34,696 bases of DNA from a virus (lineage: Duplodnaviria > Caudoviricetes), in the IMG/VR virus record IMGVR_UViG_3300030095_003569, positions 1-34,696 of that record. The stretch is one strand, 5' to 3'. This document shows, one piece after another, positions 9,476 through 32,781 of the stretch; the first letter of the stretch is position 1; each line of letters opens with the position of its first letter. The translations under genes and the position numbers were made by a program. The notes below the pieces were generated by a model, which ran no database searches, was not told the origin of the DNA, and saw only the letters and a program-made list of their open reading frames with translations.

Positions 9476-12400
9476 ATGCCTAGACTTGTTGATCTTGAAG
9501 GTTTTGGTAGAATAGAGTTTCCAGACAATGCTACCAATGAACAAATTGATTCTTATTTAAAAGAAAATCAAGACAAATACTTTCCTCCTACACCCGATCC
9601 TTCTGTAGAAACTTCTCTACCTACCGAACCTCTTAGTTCTGGTTTGGGAGAAGATGATGGTAATATTTTAGCTTCTCTAACATTTGATCCTTTAGAACGT
9701 GGTATTCGTAATGCTCAAATTGCTTATAATGTTTTTCAAGAAAATGTAGGTCTTAATACTCCAGAAGAGGCGGCTGCTGATATTAAAAGATATCAAGATA
9801 GAATTGCAGAAATTCCAATGGGAGAAAGAAATGCAAAAACTTTAGAAACAATTGTTAATGCTAAAGGTTTAAAAGAAACTATGTCAGCTTTGGCAGACAA
9901 CCCAGCTGTTCTTGGGCCTGTAATTGCTGAATCTTTTGGTACATATTTACCTGCTATTTTAGGAAGTGCTGCTGCAGCTTTTGTTGGGGCTCCTACATTA
10001 GCTACTGTAGGTATTTTAGCAACAGTAAGTGGTTCTACAGAATATGGTGCTTCTTTTTTAAATTCTTTTTCAGACATGGGTATTGATGTTACAGATCCAG
10101 CTATGTTAGCAAGAGCCTTAGATAATGAAATAGTTTCTAATAAAGCAAGACAATATGGACTTAAAAGAGGTATTCCAATTGCAGCTTTTGATGCTTTATC
10201 TTTTGGTATGGCTGGTAAATTAACAGGTTTGTTTAGAGCAGGTGCAAAAGAATCTGTAAAAAAAAATATAGCTAAAGGTGCAGGTGAGATTGTTCAAGCA
10301 GGTACTTTTGGTGCATCGGGTGAGGCAACAGCTCAATTAATAGCTGATGGTAAAATATCATCTATTGGTTCAATTGTTTTAGAAGGTGTAGCTGAAGGTC
10401 CAACAGGTGTTATTGAAGCTAGTCTAAAATCACTTAAGAAAAAAGTTGAAGATCAAACAAGCACAGAAATAAAAGATTCAACGACTAAAACAAATGAAGA
10501 AATTTCTGAAAAAATAGGATACAAAACAAAAGAAACTATTGGTTTAAAAGGTCAAAAAATAAAAGAACTTGATAAAAGAAGTAACTTTATTCGTGCCTCT
10601 GTTGTTGATGAGTTTATTAAAAAAAGTCCTAAAAAATCTATTGTAACTCCTAAGAAAATTGAAAACTTTTTAAATAAAGAATTTGGAGTAGATTTAAATG
10701 TTAAAGAACTATTAGATTCAAAAGTTGAAACAGGTATTTTAGTTAAAGATGGAAGAAGTTATCGAATAGCTGATGTTGATGGAGCTATAGCTTCTGGTAT
10801 AGGAAGTAATGAAGATCAAGTAAAAAATAAAAAAATAATAAAACCTAAAATTAAACTTAATAAAAAGAGAACAAAAGAAACTGGTGTAAAAGTAGAAAGT
10901 ATTATTACTAATAAACAAGAAGTAGGCACAATACAAGAAACACAAACAGTAGTAGAAGAAAAACCTAACTTAACAAAGGCAAATATAAACAGATTAAATA
11001 ATTTAAATCAAAAAAGAAAAGAATTAAACAACCAAAGAAAAAGCATTCTTAAAGAACAAAAGATAGCTAAAAATAAAAAAATATATGATAACAGAATTAA
11101 AACTGTAGATAATAAATTAAACAACATTACAAAACAAGAAGATCAAATTAATAAACCAAAAAAAAGAAAAGAAAAAAATTTTATAGTTACCGTTGATCAA
11201 AATATTTTTGAAACTCCTAGTAGATCAGAGGCTATAAAAAAAATTAATGAATTTGTTAATATACAACCCAAAAGTGTTAAACCATCTATGGGTACAAACG
11301 AGTCTTTAGAAACTGAAAATAAAAAAACTACTAAACAAATTAAAAAAGAAATTAAAGATGCTGTTAGCACTAATTTAGTTAAAGATTATGTTTTGCCTCC
11401 TCAAGAAGAAAAAAGTGAACAAGCTCAAAATTCTGATGATGTAGAAACAATATTAGAACAAGCAACAGATGAAGAAGGTGTTAATCCTAATACAAAAGAA
11501 GGCAGAAAAGCTTTAAATAAAATTAATAAAGTAACTCAAAATATTAAAGGATTTGATAAAAACGATTCTCAAATAAGTTTACTTAAAGATAAATTTTTTA
11601 GTGATCTTTACCAATTAGCTACTAAAAGCAAAGCTATTGCTAGATATTTTAATCCTGTTTTAAATCAAGAAGATTCAAGAGTAATGTTAAATAATCAACA
11701 AGCTAAAATTATTTCGGATGCTTTTTTAAAATTACCAAATAATAAAAAAGTAGGTGAAGTTATAATGGCTGCTACTTATGCTAGAAGAAATAAAAGAATT
11801 TTATTAGCTAATGACGACGGTAAAATTATAATTACGGAAGCTGAATTAAGAAATGATCCAACTAAAGAAGAAAGTTTAAAAATAAATCGTAAAAAGGTTT
11901 TAGGTATTGCAGATTTATATTTTGGAACTGAATTAACAATTGAAGGTGATTTAGTTTTAGATGAATTGCAAGTTAATGCTTTAAATAAATTAGTTGAATT
12001 AGGTCAATTTCAAAAAGATAATGCAATAAAACTTCATATTCAACAGTTAATTGAAATGTTAAATCCAGAAGATTTTAGATTAATTGACGTTACAAATCCT
12101 GTGGGCATTAAAGATATTTTAACAAAAAAATACGAACTAGCATCAGAAGAATTAACAGATAAACAAAAAAAACAATTAATTAATGATATCGATGCTATTG
12201 AAAAAGTAGCTAATTCAATTTTAAATTTAAAAAAAAATAGAGATACTTCTACTTATGTTCCTTTAAGCAGACAAGGTAATGAATATCTTTCTGTTATTGA
12301 AAACCAATTAGAATATCCAAGAGATAAAAACGGTAAACCTGATTTAACAGCAGAGCCATCAGTTATAAAAAGAACTATAATGTGGAAAGCTTTTAACACA

Positions 12401-14734
12401 AAAAATATTAATTCTTCTCCAATTTTTAAAAGCACTAGAAAAGCTAGAAAAAATAAAAAAAAGGCTATTCAAATAGAACAAAAATTAAAAGAAAAATTTA
12501 ATCCAAATGAAAAATTAACAGATGAAAATAATGTAATCATAAAAGATAAAAATGGTAAACCTATTTTAAAATATGTTCATAGTGGTTTAAAAGAAAATAA
12601 TTACAATGAAATTGTTAAAAGTTTAGATAAAGGATTTGCTCAAAATTTAGATAATTTTTTACAAGTTACTCCAAGCATAAGTTCTTTATCTGAACCTGAA
12701 AAAGAACAATTAGTTAAAAAAGCTAAAGATGTAGAAGTTTTTCAAAAAAGACCTTCTTTTTTTAAAGAGTCTAAAGTAATAGCTGGATTTGAACCAACCG
12801 ATGGTATGGAAATGTTAGTTAATCAAATACAAGCATTTTCAAATTGGTCATCAACAACAGAATTTAAACCTAGAATTAAAGAAGTTGTAGATGATGTTGA
12901 CAAAGATGAAACAATAACAAAACAAGAAAAAAACTTAATAAAAACTCATCAAAAATATTTGCAAGAATTTCCTAATGAGCATAATAGTTTTAGAAATTTA
13001 GGATTTATGTGGTTTTTAACAGATGCTAGTGCTGCGGTTGTAAACCAACTTCAAGTTGTTCCTGCTATGATTTTTAATAGTCAAGTATTAGGAGGTGGTT
13101 TATTGAACTCTATGAAACTACATTCTCTTGCTATGAAAGATGTTATTAAATATGGTTTTAGTCCTTTAAAAGGAACAACAGAATATGGTAATGCAATTAG
13201 TGTAGAAAAAATTGCTAATTCTCCTCTTGCTAATAGAATTAAACCTTTTAAAGACCTTAATTATTTAATTTCAACTTTTATAAACAGTAGTAGAACTAAT
13301 CAATTAATAGGTGCCGAAAAAGAAGAGTTAATTCAAAATGAAACTAAAACTATAGCTGAAGCAGCTAAACCTATTCCGACTAAAATTAAAAATGTTTTAA
13401 CAACTATGTTTAGTAGTTCTGAGGCTTTAAATCGTTTTGGAACTTATGTTTCTGCATATGATATTTTAAATTCAGATGTATCTTTACAAAGAATGATTAA
13501 AAATCTTTCTGCAAATCCTTTATTTATAGAAAGAGTTAATCAAAAAGGAATTGATTTAAGCACTGATGTAGGCTCTATGACTCAAGATCAAAAAGATGGT
13601 TTAAAAGAAATAGGTGCTCGAATGTCTGTTGAAGAAACTCAACATTTATATGGAAGGCTTAGTAAACCGGGCTTAACTAGAGGATTCGGTGCTCTTCTTT
13701 TTCAATTTGCTGATTATGCTGTTAATCAAATGAATTTAGTTAATAGAATGGCTAGATATTATGGTCCAGATGGAAAAAAAGCTGCGGCTTTATATGCTAC
13801 TGCTTTAGTAGGAATGGGTGGTTTTTTAGGACTTCCTTTCTTAGATGATTTTCAAAAAATTGTAGAAGCAACTTATAATCAATTTGCAAAAGTAGATATT
13901 AATGTTGAAAAAACTATGAGAGAATATATAGCTAAAACAACAAATCCTGAGTTTGCAGATATGTTAGCAAGAGGTTGGTTAAGTCAAGCTGCTAGCACAG
14001 ATATTGGAAGACGTGTAACATTAGGAACATTTCCTATAACAGGTATAATTGCTGATTTTTTAACTGGACGAACAAGTTTAGTTGACTTAGGTCCTCCTTC
14101 TTTAGGTGTTCTAGATGGAATGGCGATGGCTATAAAGAATGCTGCAAAATATGAAGATAAAAGAGAATTAGTTAAACTTTTACCAAAACCTTTTGCATAT
14201 ACATATAAATCTTATTTTGAATATCCTGAAAAAGGAATAAGAAGTGAAAGAGGAACATCTGTTTTGCCAGTACCAACTCCTTCTGTGATTGATCAAGAAA
14301 ATAAAGTATTAACAGCTGGTGAAAAATTTTTATATGCTTTAGGTTTTACTCCAAAAAAAATAGCTGATGCAAGAAGAAAAACTTATTATACTAATTTTTC
14401 TAAAAATGCATCTAGAGAACTACAAGAATTTTTTACAAATGAAATAGTAAGAACTAGAGTTGCTTTGTATAACTTAACTACACAACAAACAAAAAGACAG
14501 TATTCTCCACAAGAAATTAATGATATGAGAAAAGAGTTTGCAAGAGATTTAGAAATTATCAGACAAAAAATAATTGAACATAATAAACAAGCAAATTTAA
14601 ATGAAGATTATCATTTAATAGTTAACCCTCAAAATACAACTATTGAGAAAAAAGTTGATGAAGCAATATTTGGTTTTAAAAAATATCCTAAGAAACTACA
14701 ACAAGAGATACGAGATATAGAAGGTTCTAATTAG
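9476..14734 (+). CDS. Large internal virion / ejection protein (gp16 analogue)
   Basis: 1752 aa, SD AAGGA. Hydrophobic Ala/Gly segments near the N-terminus, Lys-rich middle, helical C-terminus with LLFQF. Last and largest gene of the structural run. Confidence 0.6.
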   Translation: MPRLVDLEGFGRIEFPDNATNEQIDSYLKENQDKYFPPTPDPSVETSLPTEPLSSGLGEDDGNILASLTFDPLERGIRNAQIAYNVFQENVGLNTPEEAAADIKRYQDRIAEIPMGERNAKTLETIVNAKGLKETMSALADNPAVLGPVIAESFGTYLPAILGSAAAAFVGAPTLATVGILATVSGSTEYGASFLNSFSDMGIDVTDPAMLARALDNEIVSNKARQYGLKRGIPIAAFDALSFGMAGKLTGLFRAGAKESVKKNIAKGAGEIVQAGTFGASGEATAQLIADGKISSIGSIVLEGVAEGPTGVIEASLKSLKKKVEDQTSTEIKDSTTKTNEEISEKIGYKTKETIGLKGQKIKELDKRSNFIRASVVDEFIKKSPKKSIVTPKKIENFLNKEFGVDLNVKELLDSKVETGILVKDGRSYRIADVDGAIASGIGSNEDQVKNKKIIKPKIKLNKKRTKETGVKVESIITNKQEVGTIQETQTVVEEKPNLTKANINRLNNLNQKRKELNNQRKSILKEQKIAKNKKIYDNRIKTVDNKLNNITKQEDQINKPKKRKEKNFIVTVDQNIFETPSRSEAIKKINEFVNIQPKSVKPSMGTNESLETENKKTTKQIKKEIKDAVSTNLVKDYVLPPQEEKSEQAQNSDDVETILEQATDEEGVNPNTKEGRKALNKINKVTQNIKGFDKNDSQISLLKDKFFSDLYQLATKSKAIARYFNPVLNQEDSRVMLNNQQAKIISDAFLKLPNNKKVGEVIMAATYARRNKRILLANDDGKIIITEAELRNDPTKEESLKINRKKVLGIADLYFGTELTIEGDLVLDELQVNALNKLVELGQFQKDNAIKLHIQQLIEMLNPEDFRLIDVTNPVGIKDILTKKYELASEELTDKQKKQLINDIDAIEKVANSILNLKKNRDTSTYVPLSRQGNEYLSVIENQLEYPRDKNGKPDLTAEPSVIKRTIMWKAFNTKNINSSPIFKSTRKARKNKKKAIQIEQKLKEKFNPNEKLTDENNVIIKDKNGKPILKYVHSGLKENNYNEIVKSLDKGFAQNLDNFLQVTPSISSLSEPEKEQLVKKAKDVEVFQKRPSFFKESKVIAGFEPTDGMEMLVNQIQAFSNWSSTTEFKPRIKEVVDDVDKDETITKQEKNLIKTHQKYLQEFPNEHNSFRNLGFMWFLTDASAAVVNQLQVVPAMIFNSQVLGGGLLNSMKLHSLAMKDVIKYGFSPLKGTTEYGNAISVEKIANSPLANRIKPFKDLNYLISTFINSSRTNQLIGAEKEELIQNETKTIAEAAKPIPTKIKNVLTTMFSSSEALNRFGTYVSAYDILNSDVSLQRMIKNLSANPLFIERVNQKGIDLSTDVGSMTQDQKDGLKEIGARMSVEETQHLYGRLSKPGLTRGFGALLFQFADYAVNQMNLVNRMARYYGPDGKKAAALYATALVGMGGFLGLPFLDDFQKIVEATYNQFAKVDINVEKTMREYIAKTTNPEFADMLARGWLSQAASTDIGRRVTLGTFPITGIIADFLTGRTSLVDLGPPSLGVLDGMAMAIKNAAKYEDKRELVKLLPKPFAYTYKSYFEYPEKGIRSERGTSVLPVPTPSVIDQENKVLTAGEKFLYALGFTPKKIADARRKTYYTNFSKNASRELQEFFTNEIVRTRVALYNLTTQQTKRQYSPQEINDMRKEFARDLEIIRQKIIEHNKQANLNEDYHLIVNPQNTTIEKKVDEAIFGFKKYPKKLQQEIRDIEGSN

Positions 14735-14769: not shown

Positions 14770-15573
14770 ATGGACCACATTCATGTTGTTATTGGCTGGG
14801 ACTCACGAGAAATAGATGCATATAACGTAGCTGAACATTCGGTTATTCGACGTTCATCTATTCCTGTTACTGTTACAAAACTTATGCATAATTCATTACG
14901 ATCTGCTGGTTTATTTAAAAGGGCTTGGAAGATTGATAAGAATGGACAACATTATGATGTTTTAGACAAAGCTCCTTTTTCTACAGAGTTTAGCCACACT
15001 CGATTTCTTGTTCCTGAATTAGCTAGATTAAATTCTATTAAAGGATGGGTTATTTTTTGTGATTGTGATTTTTTGTGGCTTGAAGATATTAAAAAATTAG
15101 TAGATGGTTTAGATTCAGAATATCCTGTAATGTCTGTGCATTTTAATTATAATCCAAATGAAGAGTATAAGATGGACAACAAAATACAGACCAAGTATAA
15201 TTGTAAGTTGTGGTCTTCGTTAATGGCTTTTAATATGGATCATCCTGACAATAAAAAATTAACTGTAGACATGGTAAACAAAGCTAAAGGACTAGACCTT
15301 CATCAATTTCAATGGTTAAAGAACGGTCCTGGGAGTGTGGGTGAGATTAATCCCTATTGGAATTATGTTCCTGACATAACTGAATATAAAACAACTCAAC
15401 CCAATGCTGTGCATTTTTCATTAGGAGGTCCTTGGTTAGAAGGATATGAAGATTGTCCGTTTTCAAAAGAATGGTATGCAGAAAAAGCACACATGGATAA
15501 TTCAAACATACGAACATTAAAACAAATGTTTTTAAATATAGGAGAATACAAACCGTCATGCCTAATAAATTAG
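14770..15573 (+). CDS. GT-A fold glycosyltransferase (GT8/CDI-like nucleotide-diphospho-sugar transferase)
   Basis: IGWDSRE, STEFSHTRFLVP, DxD motif (FCDCDF), WSSLMAFN, WNY, VHFSLGGPW. Confidence 0.8.
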   Translation: MDHIHVVIGWDSREIDAYNVAEHSVIRRSSIPVTVTKLMHNSLRSAGLFKRAWKIDKNGQHYDVLDKAPFSTEFSHTRFLVPELARLNSIKGWVIFCDCDFLWLEDIKKLVDGLDSEYPVMSVHFNYNPNEEYKMDNKIQTKYNCKLWSSLMAFNMDHPDNKKLTVDMVNKAKGLDLHQFQWLKNGPGSVGEINPYWNYVPDITEYKTTQPNAVHFSLGGPWLEGYEDCPFSKEWYAEKAHMDNSNIRTLKQMFLNIGEYKPSCLIN

Positions 15574-17183
15574 CAGTAGTAACATCGTTTCGAGGCGACC
15601 ATTGGAATATTTATGCTAAAGAATGTATCGATAGTTTTGTAAAGAATTGGCCTGAAGATGTTAAGCTTTATGCTTACTATAATGATTGGCCAGAAGTCGG
15701 TCTTCAAAACTATGATAAAAAAAGAGTTAAATTTATTGACCTTACCGATAATGATAATGGCTTATGTAAGTTTTTAGAAACTCATAAAGACAATCCTAAC
15801 AAATCTAACTGGCGAACAGATGCAAATCGTTGGGCTTATAAAGTTTATACTGAATACGATTTCTTTGTTAAGAGCCCACCAAAATGTGATATAGGTATTT
15901 GGTTAGATGCTGACACAGTAACCTATAATAAAATTACACACAAAGAATTATCAGAGTGGCTACCAGAAGGACAAGATATTTGTATCCTAGATCGTACAGC
16001 AACCAACTATGCAGAAGCTGGTTTCTTTATGTTAAAGATGAGTGACTTAAATCAAGCTGTAATCGCAGACCTATATGGAACTTGGAATACTGGCGAAGTC
16101 TTTAACTATAAAGAGTGGCATGATGCTTTTGTCTTAACTCGATTGTTAAAACTACACCAAGCTCATGGTATGAAAATATATAATTTATCTCCTTATTGTG
16201 CTGACCTTAATGCTTTTGAATGTTCTCCTTTAGTAAGATATCTTTACCATAATAAAGGAATGTTAAAGTTTAAACAGAACGAACAAGAAGTAGCTAATAT
16301 AAAAACAGATGTGCAGCATCAACCAAAGAATAGCAATAAAAAACCAATTATTGTACAACCTCAAGATTGTATGCCTGTAGAAGAGATTCGTACAAACATC
16401 TTGACAAATTCAAAACGAATACCTTCTATGTTAAAAAAGTGTCAGTGGAATAACGAAGAAGTTGCTATTGTCTCTGCGGGTCCCTCATTAAAAAATAATT
16501 TAGAAAATATTCGGATTGAACAAAATAACGGTGTTAAAATTATATGTGTTAAACATAGCCACAACATACTTCTTGAAAATGGTATACAACCTTGGGGCTG
16601 TACAGTTTTAGATCCTAGACCTTTTCACGAAAAGTCTACCCATGGTTTTGTAAGAAAAGAATTATTAGCTGAACCACATCCTAGTATTAAATACTTTGTA
16701 GCTACGATGTCTAATACAGATGTTGTAACTCATTTACTTGATAAGAAAGCTAACGTTATAGGATGGGATGCTTATTGTAATGCGATTGAAGGTTGGGATT
16801 ATTTTAAAGATAGATTGTTAATAACCGGAGGAACCTGTGCTGGTATGAGGTCAATTGGTTTAGTCCATACTCTTGGTTTTAGAACGGTTCATCTTTATGG
16901 GTTTGACTCTTGTAACGATGGACCACCTAAAGATAAGAATGAACTAGGAGAAGATGGTACAAAAAAATGGTTAAAGGTTTCTGTAGGTGAAGACAATAAA
17001 CCATTTTGGACAACAGGAGAACTGTTAGCTCAAGCTCAAGACTTTGAAAAGTTGATGCAAAATGAAGAAGTTGATTTACAAATCAATGTTCATGGCACTG
17101 GTTTAATACCAGCTTTATGGAACGACGGTTTAAATAAAAAAAATAATACAACAACGTATAGGGAATTGTTTGATGAAGAATAA
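15558..17183 (+). CDS. Two-domain protein: GT-A glycosyltransferase fused to a MAF_flag10/DUF115 (MptE-like) domain
   Basis: N-half: WLDADT (DxD), EAGF, EWHDAFV, HNKG. C-half: AIVSAGPSL, ITGGTCAG, LGFRTVHLYGFDSC. Confidence 0.7.
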   Translation: MPNKLAVVTSFRGDHWNIYAKECIDSFVKNWPEDVKLYAYYNDWPEVGLQNYDKKRVKFIDLTDNDNGLCKFLETHKDNPNKSNWRTDANRWAYKVYTEYDFFVKSPPKCDIGIWLDADTVTYNKITHKELSEWLPEGQDICILDRTATNYAEAGFFMLKMSDLNQAVIADLYGTWNTGEVFNYKEWHDAFVLTRLLKLHQAHGMKIYNLSPYCADLNAFECSPLVRYLYHNKGMLKFKQNEQEVANIKTDVQHQPKNSNKKPIIVQPQDCMPVEEIRTNILTNSKRIPSMLKKCQWNNEEVAIVSAGPSLKNNLENIRIEQNNGVKIICVKHSHNILLENGIQPWGCTVLDPRPFHEKSTHGFVRKELLAEPHPSIKYFVATMSNTDVVTHLLDKKANVIGWDAYCNAIEGWDYFKDRLLITGGTCAGMRSIGLVHTLGFRTVHLYGFDSCNDGPPKDKNELGEDGTKKWLKVSVGEDNKPFWTTGELLAQAQDFEKLMQNEEVDLQINVHGTGLIPALWNDGLNKKNNTTTYRELFDEE

Positions 17184-18084
17184 AAAAATAGTTGGAGTGT
17201 TTATTAACACGGCCGTACAAGATCCACATTTAAATTGTTTAACAGCTTTCTGTCATGGAGTTAGAACAACAACAGATCATTTAGTTTTTTTGTCAAACTC
17301 TCCACATTACATGCAGTGTGATGTAGCTGTTATGTTTGGTTCTTGGAAGAATAGAGACAATCCACATCATGTTTTAAAAAATGATATACGAGAAAAACAT
17401 AAAGGAGACTTCTTGGTTCTTGAAACACCTTTATTAGGTAGAACAATAACAGAAGATCATAAATACTATCGAGTAGGAAAAAATCATTATATGGATACAT
17501 TAGGTGGTTTTAACAATAAGAATAGTGAAAAAGAACGTTGGGGTATTCTAAGAACCGATTTAAATATAGAGGTTAAAGAATGGAGAAAAGATGGTAAACA
17601 TATATTATTTCTTATGCAACTTCCAGGGGATGCTTCTACTTTAGAAACAAATATATTACAATGGTTACAAGATAATATAATTGAATGCCAAAAACATTCT
17701 AAACGTTTAATAAAGGTTCGTATGCATCCATTGATTTCTGGTTATGATTTATCAAAGTTTGAAAATTTTATTAAGGAGAAAAAGAATGTTGAATTGGTTA
17801 AAGGAAACACAACAAAAATTGAAGAAGACCTTAAAGATTGTTGGGCAACAGTTAGTTTCACAAGTGGGGGATCGGTGGATAGTATGCTTAATGGTGTCCC
17901 TGTTATTACACCTAGTAATCTTAATTTTACTTATCCAATCTCTAGCCATAGTTTAAAAGATATTGAGAAACCAATGATGGAAGACCGACAACAGCTATTA
18001 CAAGACTTAGCTTTTACACAATGGACTGTTACAGAAATAGCTCATGGTTTGCCTTGGAAACATTTAATGGAGGACAATGACTGA
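17170..18084 (+). CDS. Putative GT-B glycosyltransferase (capsule-synthesis KpsS/KpsC-like)
   Basis: LFLMQLPGDAS, KVRMHP, TVSFTSGGSVDSMLNGVPV motifs. Overlaps both neighbours, consistent with an operon. Confidence 0.6.
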   Translation: MMKNKKIVGVFINTAVQDPHLNCLTAFCHGVRTTTDHLVFLSNSPHYMQCDVAVMFGSWKNRDNPHHVLKNDIREKHKGDFLVLETPLLGRTITEDHKYYRVGKNHYMDTLGGFNNKNSEKERWGILRTDLNIEVKEWRKDGKHILFLMQLPGDASTLETNILQWLQDNIIECQKHSKRLIKVRMHPLISGYDLSKFENFIKEKKNVELVKGNTTKIEEDLKDCWATVSFTSGGSVDSMLNGVPVITPSNLNFTYPISSHSLKDIEKPMMEDRQQLLQDLAFTQWTVTEIAHGLPWKHLMEDND

Positions 18085-18391
18085 TAAAAAAGATAAAGAC
18101 GTAGTTGTAAATTTATTTAAACACGGTGAGCCACAGTTTTTTGATAAGACTGCTGCTTTACAAATACCTTCTGAAGAATATCAAAAAATGGTATTAGAGG
18201 GTGTTAAAAGAATAGAAAATGATGTTCCTAAATTAAAAGCTACAGGCATGATTACTATTTTAATGGATGATAAAGGTCCTCTAATTGATTACTTTGTAGG
18301 CAGTATAAATTTAAGTCAAGCTTATGTTTTGATGGACCAAATAAAGAATGTTATAATAGATAAACTTAATGGAGTAGAGGAAGAAGAATGA
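18077..18391 (+). CDS. Hypothetical protein
   Basis: GGAGG SD; overlaps both neighbours. Confidence 0.6.
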   Translation: MTDKKDKDVVVNLFKHGEPQFFDKTAALQIPSEEYQKMVLEGVKRIENDVPKLKATGMITILMDDKGPLIDYFVGSINLSQAYVLMDQIKNVIIDKLNGVEEEE

Positions 18392-18786
18392 TTGCTAACA
18401 GTGTTATCGGAGTAGCCGGAAAAATCCTAGACAAGTTTGTCGAAGACAAAGATTTAAAAACTAAGATTAATGGCGAGTTAAGGAAGCAGACATTAGCCCT
18501 TGCTCAAGAACAAGCTAAAGCCAATACAGAACAAGCCAAGCATCCTAGCATATTTGTGTCAGGAGCTAGACCAGCCATAATGTGGGTAGCTTGTTTGGGT
18601 TTATTTACAAATTTTTTTATTCTTCCCCTAGCCGAGTGGGCCTGTGCTATATGGGCCCCCGGTGTTTCTTTGCCTGATTTACAAACGGATGAACTTTTAT
18701 CGTTAGTCATAGCTTTGCTCGGGCTTGGTGGCATGAGGTCATTCGAGAAGGCTCGTGGTGTAGCTAGAGACAATCTTAAAAAATAG
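18388..18786 (+). CDS. Holin of 3 TMs (GTA_holin_3TM-like)
   Basis: KILDKFVEDKD, SIFVSGARPAIMWV, ALLGLGGMRSFEK signature; hydrophobic helices. Confidence 0.8.
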   Translation: MIANSVIGVAGKILDKFVEDKDLKTKINGELRKQTLALAQEQAKANTEQAKHPSIFVSGARPAIMWVACLGLFTNFFILPLAEWACAIWAPGVSLPDLQTDELLSLVIALLGLGGMRSFEKARGVARDNLKK

Positions 18787-18788
18787 TA

Positions 18789-18817
18789 TTGTTTATCTAA
18801 ATAAGTGTTATTATAAT
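18789..18817 (+). promoter_or_regulatory. Sigma70-type promoter of pqqA
   Basis: TTGTTT (18789-94), 17 nt, TATAAT (18812-17), immediately after the holin stop. Confidence 0.65.
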
Positions 18818-18823
18818 CATCTA

Positions 18824-18870
18824 TAGTGGCTGCGGTCTTTGACAACCAGCACTAATGTTAACCTTTAACA
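18824..18870 (+). promoter_or_regulatory. Structured 5' leader of pqqA
   Basis: TAGT(G)GCTG...CAGCACTA stem with inner GTC-TTT-GAC (18824-18854), then weak TGTTAA-CCT-TTAACA (18856-70), just before SD GGAG (18873-76). Confidence 0.5.
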
Positions 18871-18881
18871 ATGGAGTTGTT

Positions 18882-18962
18882 ATGTCAATATGGACACAAC
18901 CTAAAATCACTGAAATATCTGTTGGTCTAGAGATCAATAGCTATGCTTGTGCTGAAAAATAA
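18882..18962 (+). CDS. pqqA: Pyrroloquinoline quinone precursor peptide PqqA (26 aa)
   Basis: Translates to MSIWTQPKITEISVGLEINSYACAEK*. Has the W-x-x-P...E..vG.E-x-x-x-Y pattern of alphaproteobacterial PqqA, with core E-I-N-S-Y. SD GGAG 5 nt upstream. Below the ORF-track size cutoff. Confidence 0.9.
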   Translation: MSIWTQPKITEISVGLEINSYACAEK

Positions 18963-18969
18963 TTGAGGC

Positions 18970-19024
18970 AAAAAAAATCCCTAGAGTCTTACGGTATCTA
19001 AACACCTTCCCAACTCTAGGGATT
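18970..19024 (-). terminator. Intrinsic terminator-like stem-loop where the two genome arms converge
   Basis: 12-bp perfect inverted repeat AATCCCTAGAGT (18976-87) / ACTCTAGGGATT (19013-24) with a 25-nt loop, followed by a U-run on the - strand. Confidence 0.75.
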
Positions 19025-19046
19025 ATATTGACGACGTTGTTTCAAT
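18970..19046 (-). ncRNA. Candidate ~75-nt small RNA
   Basis: Minus-strand promoter TTGAAC (19073-78), 16 nt, TATACT (19051-56); short ATTGA...TCAAT hairpin, then the terminator; no ORF. Confidence 0.35.
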
Positions 19047-19058
19047 TAACAGTATATA

Positions 19059-19487
19059 CTATTTACAAGCTTGTTCAAGAAATTTCTGAGCAATTTCTGA
19101 AGAGGAGGTAACTTTATTTCCTCCAAGATTAAATATCATCGGTATTTCATTTTCCATACAAAAAGAAACTTCAGGAGTATTCGTTGGAATCCTATCCCCA
19201 CCATTAGCAAACACAAACGGAATCTTTTCTTTATGAATCACTTCTAAATTAGAAACGATTGTATTGTCTTTATCTTTGGCAGGAATTACTTTATCAACAT
19301 ACTGATTAGATTGTATAATACTTTCCCTTTGATCATAGTTCATTAGATTAAATCCTTTCTTTCTAATTAACCACTCATCAGAATTTACAATTGCCCAAAC
19401 GGTTCCAAGTTTATTTGCTTGTCGAAACATTTGAATATGGCCCGAATGTATTGGATCGAACCCTCCACTAACTATTATAATCATCAT
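19059..19487 (-). CDS. HxGH-family cytidylyl/adenylyltransferase (TagD / RfaE domain II-like)
   Basis: SGGFDPIHSGH, IVNSDEWLIRKKG, FANGGDR, KVTSSS. Confidence 0.85.
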   Translation of the reverse strand: MMIIIVSGGFDPIHSGHIQMFRQANKLGTVWAIVNSDEWLIRKKGFNLMNYDQRESIIQSNQYVDKVIPAKDKDNTIVSNLEVIHKEKIPFVFANGGDRIPTNTPEVSFCMENEIPMIFNLGGNKVTSSSEIAQKFLEQACK

Positions 19488-19809
19488 ATACCCTTATTAT
19501 ATCGTTTTCGTCTAATTTTTCACCGTTCCAAACCTCGAATATCCTTATATGGCCCATAGAGGCTCGTACACAATGAATTGTTCTTTTTGGGATATAAACC
19601 CTAGCTCCAGGCATAAAATCCCACCACCGGTCATCTATGAGGACCGAACTTTGGCCTTCTAGTATTTTCCAATGCTCTTCTCTAAAATTATGGTATTGAA
19701 CAGACATTGATCGTCCCGCATAGACATGAAGAATTTTTGCCACCATTTTTGGAGTTCTTTTTAATACTCTGTAAGTACCCCAAGGTCGGAAAACAATATC
19801 TTCTTTCAT
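19468..19809 (-). CDS. Cupin, mannose-6-phosphate isomerase type II C-terminal-like
   Basis: RPWGTY, MSVQYHNFREEHW, IPKRTIH, EVWNG..LDENDIIRVYD. Confidence 0.8.
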   Translation of the reverse strand: MKEDIVFRPWGTYRVLKRTPKMVAKILHVYAGRSMSVQYHNFREEHWKILEGQSSVLIDDRWWDFMPGARVYIPKRTIHCVRASMGHIRIFEVWNGEKLDENDIIRVYDDYNS

Positions 19810-19811
19810 AA

Positions 19812-20381
19812 TTACCTAAACGGTTGTCCCATAAACCAACAAACTAAACTGTGACGTGTTCCTTCTGTCACTGCCTTTATTCTATGAAGATTAAAAGAAG
19901 GAAACATAATCATATCTCCTTTATTTTTAAAACCTTCTATTGGTTCTATTTTACCATCCATATTCTTAACTTGTAAGATCCCTCCTTTATAATCTTCAAA
20001 ATTAGATAACTGAATACACATCGATAATTTTCTTATTAATCCCGGATAAGGACCATCAGGTTCTGGTGGATAAATGTCTCGATGCCATTGGTAGTGTTGT
20101 CCTTTTTTATATTCGGCAAACTGAGGACACTGTAAATTAGAAATATCAAATCCATAATATTCTTTATTAATTTCTGCTGCAATTTCACAAAGTTTAGGAA
20201 CAACCCAATGATCTATAGGATAGAATCTAATTTTAGAATTTCTATCTTTTTTTAAGTCTGCTTCTTTTTTCCACATAACACCAGCCAAATGCTCATCATA
20301 CGATGATGACTCTTCAATCATAGTATCGCATAGTTTTTTTGGAACAACTTCTGGTAACGTTAGGTATGTTTTATACATCAA
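19812..20381 (-). CDS. 2OG-Fe(II) oxygenase (PKHD / prolyl-4-hydroxylase-like)
   Basis: HxD (WHRD), RKLSMCIQLS..YKGG, FPS..LHRIKAVTEGTRHSLVCW. Confidence 0.85.
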   Translation of the reverse strand: MMYKTYLTLPEVVPKKLCDTMIEESSSYDEHLAGVMWKKEADLKKDRNSKIRFYPIDHWVVPKLCEIAAEINKEYYGFDISNLQCPQFAEYKKGQHYQWHRDIYPPEPDGPYPGLIRKLSMCIQLSNFEDYKGGILQVKNMDGKIEPIEGFKNKGDMIMFPSFNLHRIKAVTEGTRHSLVCWFMGQPFR

Positions 20382-31501: not shown

Positions 31502-31723
31502 TCAAATTTCATCATCTTTTTTAAAAACTTCTAAAAAACGAATTTGAGATTTTACAAGCAAATCAACATTATCTTTTCTCAAATATTTTTTTGTGATTCT
31601 CCAAGTATATCCATACTCTTTACTAAACCTTTCAATTAATTCTTTGTTATCTTCAATAACACGAGAATCTGAATTTAATATCTTTTCTAAACGAAAAGGT
31701 AAAAGATCAATTATTTTTGTCAT
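31502..31723 (-). CDS. Hypothetical protein
   Basis: AAGGAG SD; ATGA overlap with the MTase stop. Confidence 0.6.
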   Translation of the reverse strand: MTKIIDLLPFRLEKILNSDSRVIEDNKELIERFSKEYGYTWRITKKYLRKDNVDLLVKSQIRFLEVFKKDDEI

Positions 31724-32781
31724 AGTTCTCCTTTCTCTAATTTATAAATTCTAGTACCAATCCATTTCATAACATTGGTTGTCATTGAATTACCTAATGC
31801 TTTATATCTAGGACTCATTGGACAATCTTCTTTAGATTTTCCTTTATAGGGAATCTGAGTGTAATTATCTTCAAAACCTTGAAGTCTTTCACACTCTATT
31901 GGAGTTAACTTTCTAACTCTCCAATTTTCTTCTGTAACTAAAGATTGATTGTTACCCCCTACACCCCAACTTGATGTAATGGTTTGACCTACTCCGTTAA
32001 GTTCTTTGAATCTTGTATCTTGACCATGATTCTCATAAACTTTTTTTTCACAAATTAAATTACCATGATTAGGTAGGTTGTCTGTTGCTACTCCTTTGTA
32101 GTCTCTTGCACAGAGGGTGTTGGCAGTTGTTGAGCCATGAATTTCAAAGCTTTCTCCAAATTGTTTGGAATCGTTTTTCCTCTCTTTTTTGCTCTTTTTA
32201 ATATTCCCACACAAGCTTTCTGACTCAAATAATATTTGGGTTGCACTTCTGAAGTCGTCTCCAAGACATCCAACAACAAAGACTCTTCTTCTTCGTTGGG
32301 GTACTCCAAAGTATTGAGAGTCAAGAATTCTCCACGACAAACCATACCCCCATTCTGCCAACGATGTGAGGAAACATTGGAAGTCTTTCCCTTGGTTACT
32401 TGTAAGGACTCCTCCGACATTTTCCCATACGACATATTTGGGTTTAATTCTTTTAATAAGTTGAACAAATCCAAGACAGAGATTTCCTCTTGGGTCTTCA
32501 AGCCCTTTTCTAAGTCCACTAACTGAGAAACTTTGGCATGGGGTTCCTCCCACAAGAATGTCAATTGCTCCATATTCTTCTCCTTTAATTGTTGTAAAAT
32601 CTCCATGCAATGGAACATGAGGATAATGATGTTTTAAAACTTCTCTAGGAAATTCTTCAATTTCACTAAAAAATTTAGGTTTAAATAAATCTTTCCAAGC
32701 AACACTTACAGATTCAATTCCACTACATACTGACCCATAGGTTAAAGGTTTATCTTTATACATATTCATCACTATTTTCAT
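31720..32781 (-). CDS. DNA (cytosine-5)-methyltransferase
   Basis: Motif I variant SVCSGI, IV GGTPCQSFS, VI WENV, VIII QRRRRVF, IX RKLTPIECERLQGF, X YKALGNS. Confidence 0.93.
   Translation of the reverse strand: MKIVMNMYKDKPLTYGSVCSGIESVSVAWKDLFKPKFFSEIEEFPREVLKHHYPHVPLHGDFTTIKGEEYGAIDILVGGTPCQSFSVSGLRKGLEDPRGNLCLGFVQLIKRIKPKYVVWENVGGVLTSNQGKDFQCFLTSLAEWGYGLSWRILDSQYFGVPQRRRRVFVVGCLGDDFRSATQILFESESLCGNIKKSKKERKNDSKQFGESFEIHGSTTANTLCARDYKGVATDNLPNHGNLICEKKVYENHGQDTRFKELNGVGQTITSSWGVGGNNQSLVTEENWRVRKLTPIECERLQGFEDNYTQIPYKGKSKEDCPMSPRYKALGNSMTTNVMKWIGTRIYKLEKGEL
32088..32573 (-). CDS. Nested alternative-frame gene, M.EcoHK31I beta-polypeptide-like (161 aa)
   Basis: AAAGGAG SD 6 nt before ATG 32573. 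Long stop-free alternative frame in AT-rich DNA. RWQNGGMVCRGEFLTLNTLEYP..EEES.L.DVLET and YYLSQKAC.GILKRAKKRGK.IP motifs. Confidence 0.75.
   Translation of the reverse strand: MEQLTFLWEEPHAKVSQLVDLEKGLKTQEEISVLDLFNLLKELNPNMSYGKMSEESLQVTKGKTSNVSSHRWQNGGMVCRGEFLTLNTLEYPNEEEESLLLDVLETTSEVQPKYYLSQKACVGILKRAKKRGKTIPNNLEKALKFMAQQLPTPSVQETTKE

Follow-up and report, generated by a model that had tools for sequence, protein, structure and literature searches.

The IMG/VR virus record IMGVR_UViG_3300030095_003569 (Caudoviricetes), analysed here over a stretch of 34,696 nt (the window; the record is estimated to be about 59% complete), encodes a stand-alone PqqA, the precursor peptide of the cofactor pyrroloquinoline quinone (PQQ). 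Judged by its sequence, the open reading frame (ORF) at 18882-18962 on the plus strand is a real and intact pqqA gene under purifying selection. It is preceded by an RNA hairpin with covarying stems. We consider it rather likely that the viral peptide feeds the PqqD, PqqE, PqqB and PqqC enzymes of the host for PQQ synthesis, with dehydrogenases of the methylotrophic order TMED127/Methylaequorales as the likely recipients, and that the leader hairpin likely raises the output.

The ORF starts with ATG at 18882, ends with TAA at 18962 and encodes 26 amino acids behind a GGAG Shine-Dalgarno sequence (18873-18876), exactly as the original prediction had quoted it. With its E-x-x-x-Y core, its ribosome binding site and a length within 22-30 amino acids it has the make-up of a pqqA ORF. 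The peptide reaches 32.1 bits with Pfam PF08042 (cut-off 21.1) and 37.5 bits with TIGR02107 (cut-off 20), exceeding the curated cut-offs of both PqqA profiles, and gave no match in a PHROG search. Selection was assessed on 67 distinct cores that had been picked out solely through the RNA motif described below, without use of the peptide. Glutamate and tyrosine are invariant in 67 of 67, and the ratio of nonsynonymous to synonymous differences (pN/pS) is well below 1, with 0.17 for all pairs, 0.07 for close pairs and 0.03 in the core. The assignment to the alphaproteobacterial type of PqqA is supported by the profile matches, the selection and the host genomes.

The claim that the gene stands alone also held. 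None of the 43 window proteins belongs to a Pqq family, so that the window differs from the pqqABCDE operon, where pqqB-E adjoin pqqA. Neither PqqD nor a PQQ dehydrogenase was found in 26 viral records, of which 7 have a completeness of 90% or more. PqqE reached its cut-off in none of 19 viral records, and none of 130 representatives of neighbouring genes, out of 200 clusters and singletons selected, is PqqB-E. Viral pqqA is regarded as stand-alone because pqqD, PQQ dehydrogenase and pqqE were not found in the viral records. A radical SAM gene near pqqA in one locus (L068) was rejected as PqqE, with a score of 26.7 against a cut-off of 381.

Upstream of the gene, TTGTTT (18789-18794) and TATAAT (18812-18817) form a predicted sigma-70-type promoter with a spacing of 17 nt (18789-18817, plus strand). 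Its positions are as originally claimed and are conserved, but a generic promoter scan does not include it among its 17 sites (16.8 expected), and the -35 element agrees at only 3 of 6 bases; the promoter call therefore rests on conservation. A promoter-like pair ending 4-11 nt 5' of the hairpin occurs in 67 of 106 distinct upstream stretches as compared to 4.7 +/- 2.0 after shuffling, the stretches being related sequences and not independent ones. Downstream, the predicted stem-loop at 18971-19029 is a real fold (z -5.0 on the plus and -3.5 on the minus strand, arms 88% complementary). It lies where two convergent gene arms meet, is assigned to neither strand and is terminator-like, but a terminator scan of the window did not list it and its U-run is on the minus strand.

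Between promoter and gene lies a conserved hairpin of 31 nt (18824-18854, plus strand; 38.1 bits with RNA model R1), which the original prediction had overlooked. Its stems covary, and the bases of its GCGG/CAACC internal loop are invariant. The spacer behind it (18856-18881, plus strand) holds a short inverted repeat and the Shine-Dalgarno sequence. The pattern of the window peptide occurs in an estimated 550 or so IMG/VR stretches, of which 119 loci were fetched; with the window's own row included, 120 alpha-type rows hold 83 distinct peptides. The motif stands 5' of pqqA in 36 of these 120 rows, compared to 3 background matches in 1.16 Mb, and the model adds one. When viruses were searched with the motif only and 120 loci of about 160 were taken, all 120 matches preceded pqqA, 118 of them full genes and 2 cut after the pqqA start. 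Across 49 distinct copies 97.6% of cells are paired, compensatory changes are found at 7 of 11 pairs, and U-G pairs, functional on the mRNA strand only, occur in 10 rows. None of 500 shuffles matches this pairing, in a test that is inflated by relatedness and in which the rows of the window and of L082 are one base off in the alignment; slid controls pair at 24-53%. RNAalifold recovers 10 of the 11 pairs unaided. Its covariation and its constant place ahead of a single class of gene make the hairpin a structured cis-regulatory RNA. At gathering score, Rfam gave no match on it in window 18600-19200 or in 20 short loci.

Within the window's phage group 4 of 9 loci carry the motif, as do 7 of 33 portal-GroES loci and 12 of 18 T4-like loci, against 0 of 13 loci in another group. 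It is found chiefly alongside peptides of the host-matched type (27/32 versus 4/76). The hairpin is likely at the 5' end of the RNA, given the promoter-like pairs ahead of it. Nineteen other upstream stretches close with the 3' end of a transfer-messenger RNA (tmRNA) and lack a promoter, which fits the hairpin as a 5' end after processing. A permuted alphaproteobacterial tmRNA was seen directly 5' of pqqA, with or without the hairpin between them, in 7 of 20 scanned loci, the seven being T4-like (L094, L212, L120, L090, L227, L116, L100).

Other classes of element found no support. With the hairpin locked, predicted access to the ribosome site changes from 0.38 to 0.44 in 28 leaders and stays at 0.34 in 54 leaders, and between 15 and 37 C its mean rises from 0.27 to 0.32; by these predictions access is nearly constant, which argues against a riboswitch or an RNA thermometer. 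A CIRCE-like DNA operator was rejected, as it does not agree with the varying loop length and the strand-specific U-G pairs. The literature outside subscription papers yielded no account of the hairpin or of a TMED127 phage. Six supplementary files of PMC10690425 are without a match; its files 1, 2 and 4 lay outside the search, and the motif may be among the candidates there.

The same hairpin stands before a host core gene. Among 42 genomes of the likely host order it was found in one (G006), between rluD and rpoH and directly 5' of rpoH, in a search that scored at most 149 candidates per genome. This leader (L362, G006:C2:10939-10985, minus strand) consists of hairpin, spacer and ribosome site, and spacer and ribosome site are closest in sequence to those of the window's phage group. 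Further host rpoH genes with the phage-type leader (L422, L426, L433, L472) belong to one lineage only. Metagenomes gave 113 motif matches, 106 of them before pqqA (4 cut short) and 4 before rpoH; the remaining 3 are GC-rich and without a gene start. In an unfiltered scan of 26 rpoH leaders of the order only G006 has the hairpin, the rpoH leader of G007 lying off its contig. The RpoH proteins with the motif fall together on one side of a branch supported at 85/74, within a larger group that also takes in G007 and has 100/99 support. A loose pattern gave 7 matches versus 5 for the control in two genomes of the genus of G006. A class-wide search with the RNA model found one weak match in 151 genomes, in GC-rich coding-like DNA, and had little power, as it scored only 41 candidates in each genome.

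The element varies widely among phages and is limited to a single branch of hosts, and we therefore lean towards a transfer from phage to host rpoH over an origin in the host that was followed by dispersal among phages. In either direction the shared leader ties the phage group of the window to TMED127. It is a speculative and quite improbable extension that a new small RNA element sensing PQQ or a host stress factor spread together with pqqA as one cassette among unrelated marine phages, and that one lineage of TMED127, the most active methanol oxidisers of the ocean, captured it from a phage for the control of the heat-shock sigma factor RpoH.

The host is probably the order TMED127/Methylaequorales, as far as sequence comparison can tell, and not a roseobacter as the original prediction had envisaged. 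A scan of GTDB contigs for cellular pqqA gave 121 loci and 127 rows, and the closest cellular peptides are identical to the window peptide at 20-21 of 23 residues. Cellular peptides with a window-like ending map to one order (that of G001), including MED657 and TMED13; a further one (L284) was left unmapped. The exceptions are L285, on a 2.5-kb low-GC contig in a gammaproteobacterial metagenome-assembled genome (MAG), and L260 (NZMJ01000006.1), on a contig of phage origin that encodes portal, GroES and PqqA and was binned into a Maricaulis MAG. The latter was also rejected as the sole cellular pqqA with a hairpin; 126 of 127 cellular rows, and 93 of 94 loci by the model, lack it. PMC12542740 places MED657 and TMED13 in TMED127/Methylaequorales, describes small-genome, likely obligate methylotrophs, and reports xoxF5 at 16-57% of transcripts in one TMED127 genome. 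In the host order 39 of 42 genomes have pqqA, as 1-5 near-identical copies, with at least two copies in 30 of 42. Some cellular copies (L266, L276, L283, L302) occur as two or three genes close together; in some of these cases the upstream region is repeated as well, and in some the genes stand back to back. PqqD and PQQ alcohol dehydrogenase were both present in six of six host genomes tested. Viral peptide types follow the host types in two host groups.

PqqA is consumed in PQQ synthesis, one peptide per PQQ, and the enzymes of the pathway are reused. Therefore the precursor may run short when host transcription falls. In the mechanism we propose, the host polymerase would transcribe pqqA as a short RNA from a sigma-70 promoter, starting it 6-9 nt 5' of the hairpin as conservation suggests. 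The hairpin, whose folding is indicated by covariation, may shield the 5' terminus, thereby stabilising the RNA, or, via its invariant internal loop, bind a host factor. The peptide, on which selection is observed, would be translated from the Shine-Dalgarno site and processed to PQQ by host PqqD, PqqE, PqqB and PqqC. PQQ would then keep methanol and glucose dehydrogenases supplied during infection, and more holo-dehydrogenase would mean more energy. The precursor-supply role that was originally put forward is thus supported by profile matches, selection and host genomes, while conversion of the viral peptide to PQQ, a gain of PQQ and a benefit for the phage are predicted. Methylotrophs themselves keep extra separate pqqA copies, and a Hyphomicrobium has five, three of them apart from operons (PMC9851590). 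Such cellular PqqA, dispersed copies included, has the same core (PF08042, TIGR02107) and comes without the hairpin.

Several observations weigh against this proposal. The hairpin is missing from 83 of 120 alpha-type and from all 120 Methylophilaceae-type viral copies and is dispensable, since many viral pqqA genes do without it; the window hairpin by itself shows no exceptional stability (z -0.66). A search for infected TMED127 genomes found none, with the phage primase/helicase in 0 of 42 genomes of the order, which is why the host is only inferred. The best DNA polymerase matches among cultured phages (HTVC103P, 104P and 115P, 47%) infect SAR11. Contigs from RNA libraries cover pqqA, as they do 24 of the 30 bins into which the region was divided, and such contigs show neither strand nor level.

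The invariance of the loop bases while the stems covary, the coupling to pqqA (120/120 in viruses, 106/113 in metagenomes) and the ability of the window's 3' arm to pair with the ribosome site instead would suit a hairpin that works as a sensor, the loop binding PQQ, a protein of the pathway or a factor of the stress response to tune pqqA and, in one lineage, rpoH. We hold this to be unlikely, as locking the hairpin barely shifts the predicted access to the ribosome site, the element has only 31 nt, a variable loop and no visible terminator platform, and cellular pqqA genes lack it. Extra PQQ might also serve non-respiratory ends, either redox protection or the blocking of a PQQ import receptor against other phages. 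In E. coli, a phage that targets PqqU is blocked by PQQ (PMC12124388), and other redox and Fe-S genes adjoin pqqA in T4-like loci; the dependence of the hosts on PQQ dehydrogenases (also PMC12542740) offers a simpler sink, and we give this explanation little credence.

A decoy function, in which the peptide would sequester PqqD/PqqE and reduce PQQ, had been offered by the original prediction in the alternative; it found no support here and is very improbable. Its core residues are the same as in cellular copies, with glutamate and tyrosine invariant, and viral types match host types in two host groups. A neutral recent acquisition or an assembly chimera, the latter named beforehand as a refuting case, is largely refuted and scarcely credible. 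The gene does sit at the junction of two arms, where insertions may be tolerated, but contigs (776 nt and 597 nt) of two runs other than those marked as possible source reach from the holin end through pqqA into the next gene with 0 differences. Because these independent contigs bridge the locus without differences, the window is not chimeric at pqqA; strong purifying selection and the many positions of pqqA in unrelated phage groups likewise speak against this origin.

Supply of precursor to the host remains our preferred reading, and the gene carrying it is a host-type metabolic gene within a genuine viral genome, with viral genes (holin, T7-like replication genes) on both sides. By profile searches of the window proteins, a rightward arm holds virion genes and a 3TM holin, and a leftward arm primase/helicase, family A polymerase, endonuclease I and class II ribonucleotide reductase; the junction coincides with a flip of the GC skew. 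The holin (18388-18786, plus strand; PF11351 at 42.8 bits, phrog_3427) is the last large gene of the rightward arm and pqqA its final gene, and a cytidylyltransferase-like gene (19059-19487, minus strand; PF01467) is the last of the leftward arm. The layout resembles that of HTVC103P-type phages (two convergent arms, about 55 kb), a comparison of polymerase match and layout only. A likely surface-glycan gene cluster surrounds the junction (14770-20381), with an MptE-like protein, the cytidylyltransferase, a mannose-6-phosphate isomerase domain and a 2OG-Fe(II) oxygenase, in the same order in L062, L069 and L070. Elsewhere, at 10500-13000, the GC content falls to 24% with a strong A skew within an ORF of 1752 amino acids (9476-14734) that has no PHROG match, and a C-5 cytosine methyltransferase gene (353 amino acids, minus strand, 31720-32781) is overlapped in a different frame by a same-strand ORF of 176 amino acids (32088-32618).

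In 80 loci with long flanks, neighbour genes place pqqA at many positions in several unrelated phage groups. Besides that of the window, these include a group with portal, GroES and capsid genes and T4-like phages with gp59/gp33/gp32. Of these several groups only one shows synteny of pqqA with the holin. Host-type genes near viral pqqA in six loci (L004, L053, L067, L065, L052, L068) include a SoxY-SoxZ fusion, Fe-S assembly genes, an ammonium transporter, peroxiredoxin, fatty acid desaturase, coproporphyrinogen oxidase, a ring-hydroxylating subunit and a Na/Pi transporter. The Methylophilaceae-type pattern occurs in about 2,700 IMG/VR stretches, and all 120 fetched are short ORFs, a count that refers to the ORFs and not to their neighbours. 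Nine records of cultured Methylophilales/Methylophilaceae phages carry pqqA, unannotated or as hypothetical (KX815270.1:28085-28153; MW452941.1:3316-3384; MT375522.1:9977-10045; OP830906.1; OP830907.1; MZ577095-8). The pqqA of these phages (P19250A, MEP301, Venkman, MEP401/402, Melnitz) is likewise stand-alone and, unlike that of the window, of another peptide type; the Methylophilales type has the hairpin core in 0 of 120 loci, whereas the window locus has it. A search of 50,697 GenBank phages with the window peptide and with the 166-nt cassette gave no match. PhotoRC-II and similar phage leaders also place a short conserved hairpin 5' of an auxiliary gene, and they differ from the window hairpin in sequence and gene.

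The novelty of a viral pqqA had been overstated, as it is already in print as a proposed auxiliary metabolic gene (PMC7678222, PMC13188868). For the Lake Baikal population VP_266, phage PqqA was proposed to boost PQQ in methylotrophs (Coutinho et al. 2020, PMC7678222). VP_266 is T4-like and freshwater, with a Methylophilaceae host and a viral methanol dehydrogenase; the window is marine and podovirus-type, with an alphaproteobacterial peptide and no dehydrogenase found, and the accessible part of the VP_266 account has no RNA leader. A study of reservoir sediments lists virus-encoded pqqA, pqqD and pqqE, with pqqA as an auxiliary gene (PMC13188868, 2026), and reads viral pqqA as phosphate solubilisation, whereas we read that of the window as PQQ supply to a methylotroph; its passages on the gene describe neither locus anatomy nor host nor selection. 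New at this locus are the likely TMED127 host, the covarying hairpin without an Rfam match and the same hairpin before host rpoH.

The leader is an apparently undescribed structured RNA and a regulatory leader common to phages and a host core gene. The peptide would serve as a marker by which marine phages without assignment can be linked to TMED127, a methylotroph order, abundant and uncultured, for which PMC12542740, in its accessible part, names no phage. Cultured Methylophilales phages make the role of pqqA open to experiment now. As several unrelated phage groups carry pqqA independently, our findings point to precursor supply as a likely bottleneck of marine methanol oxidation during infection.
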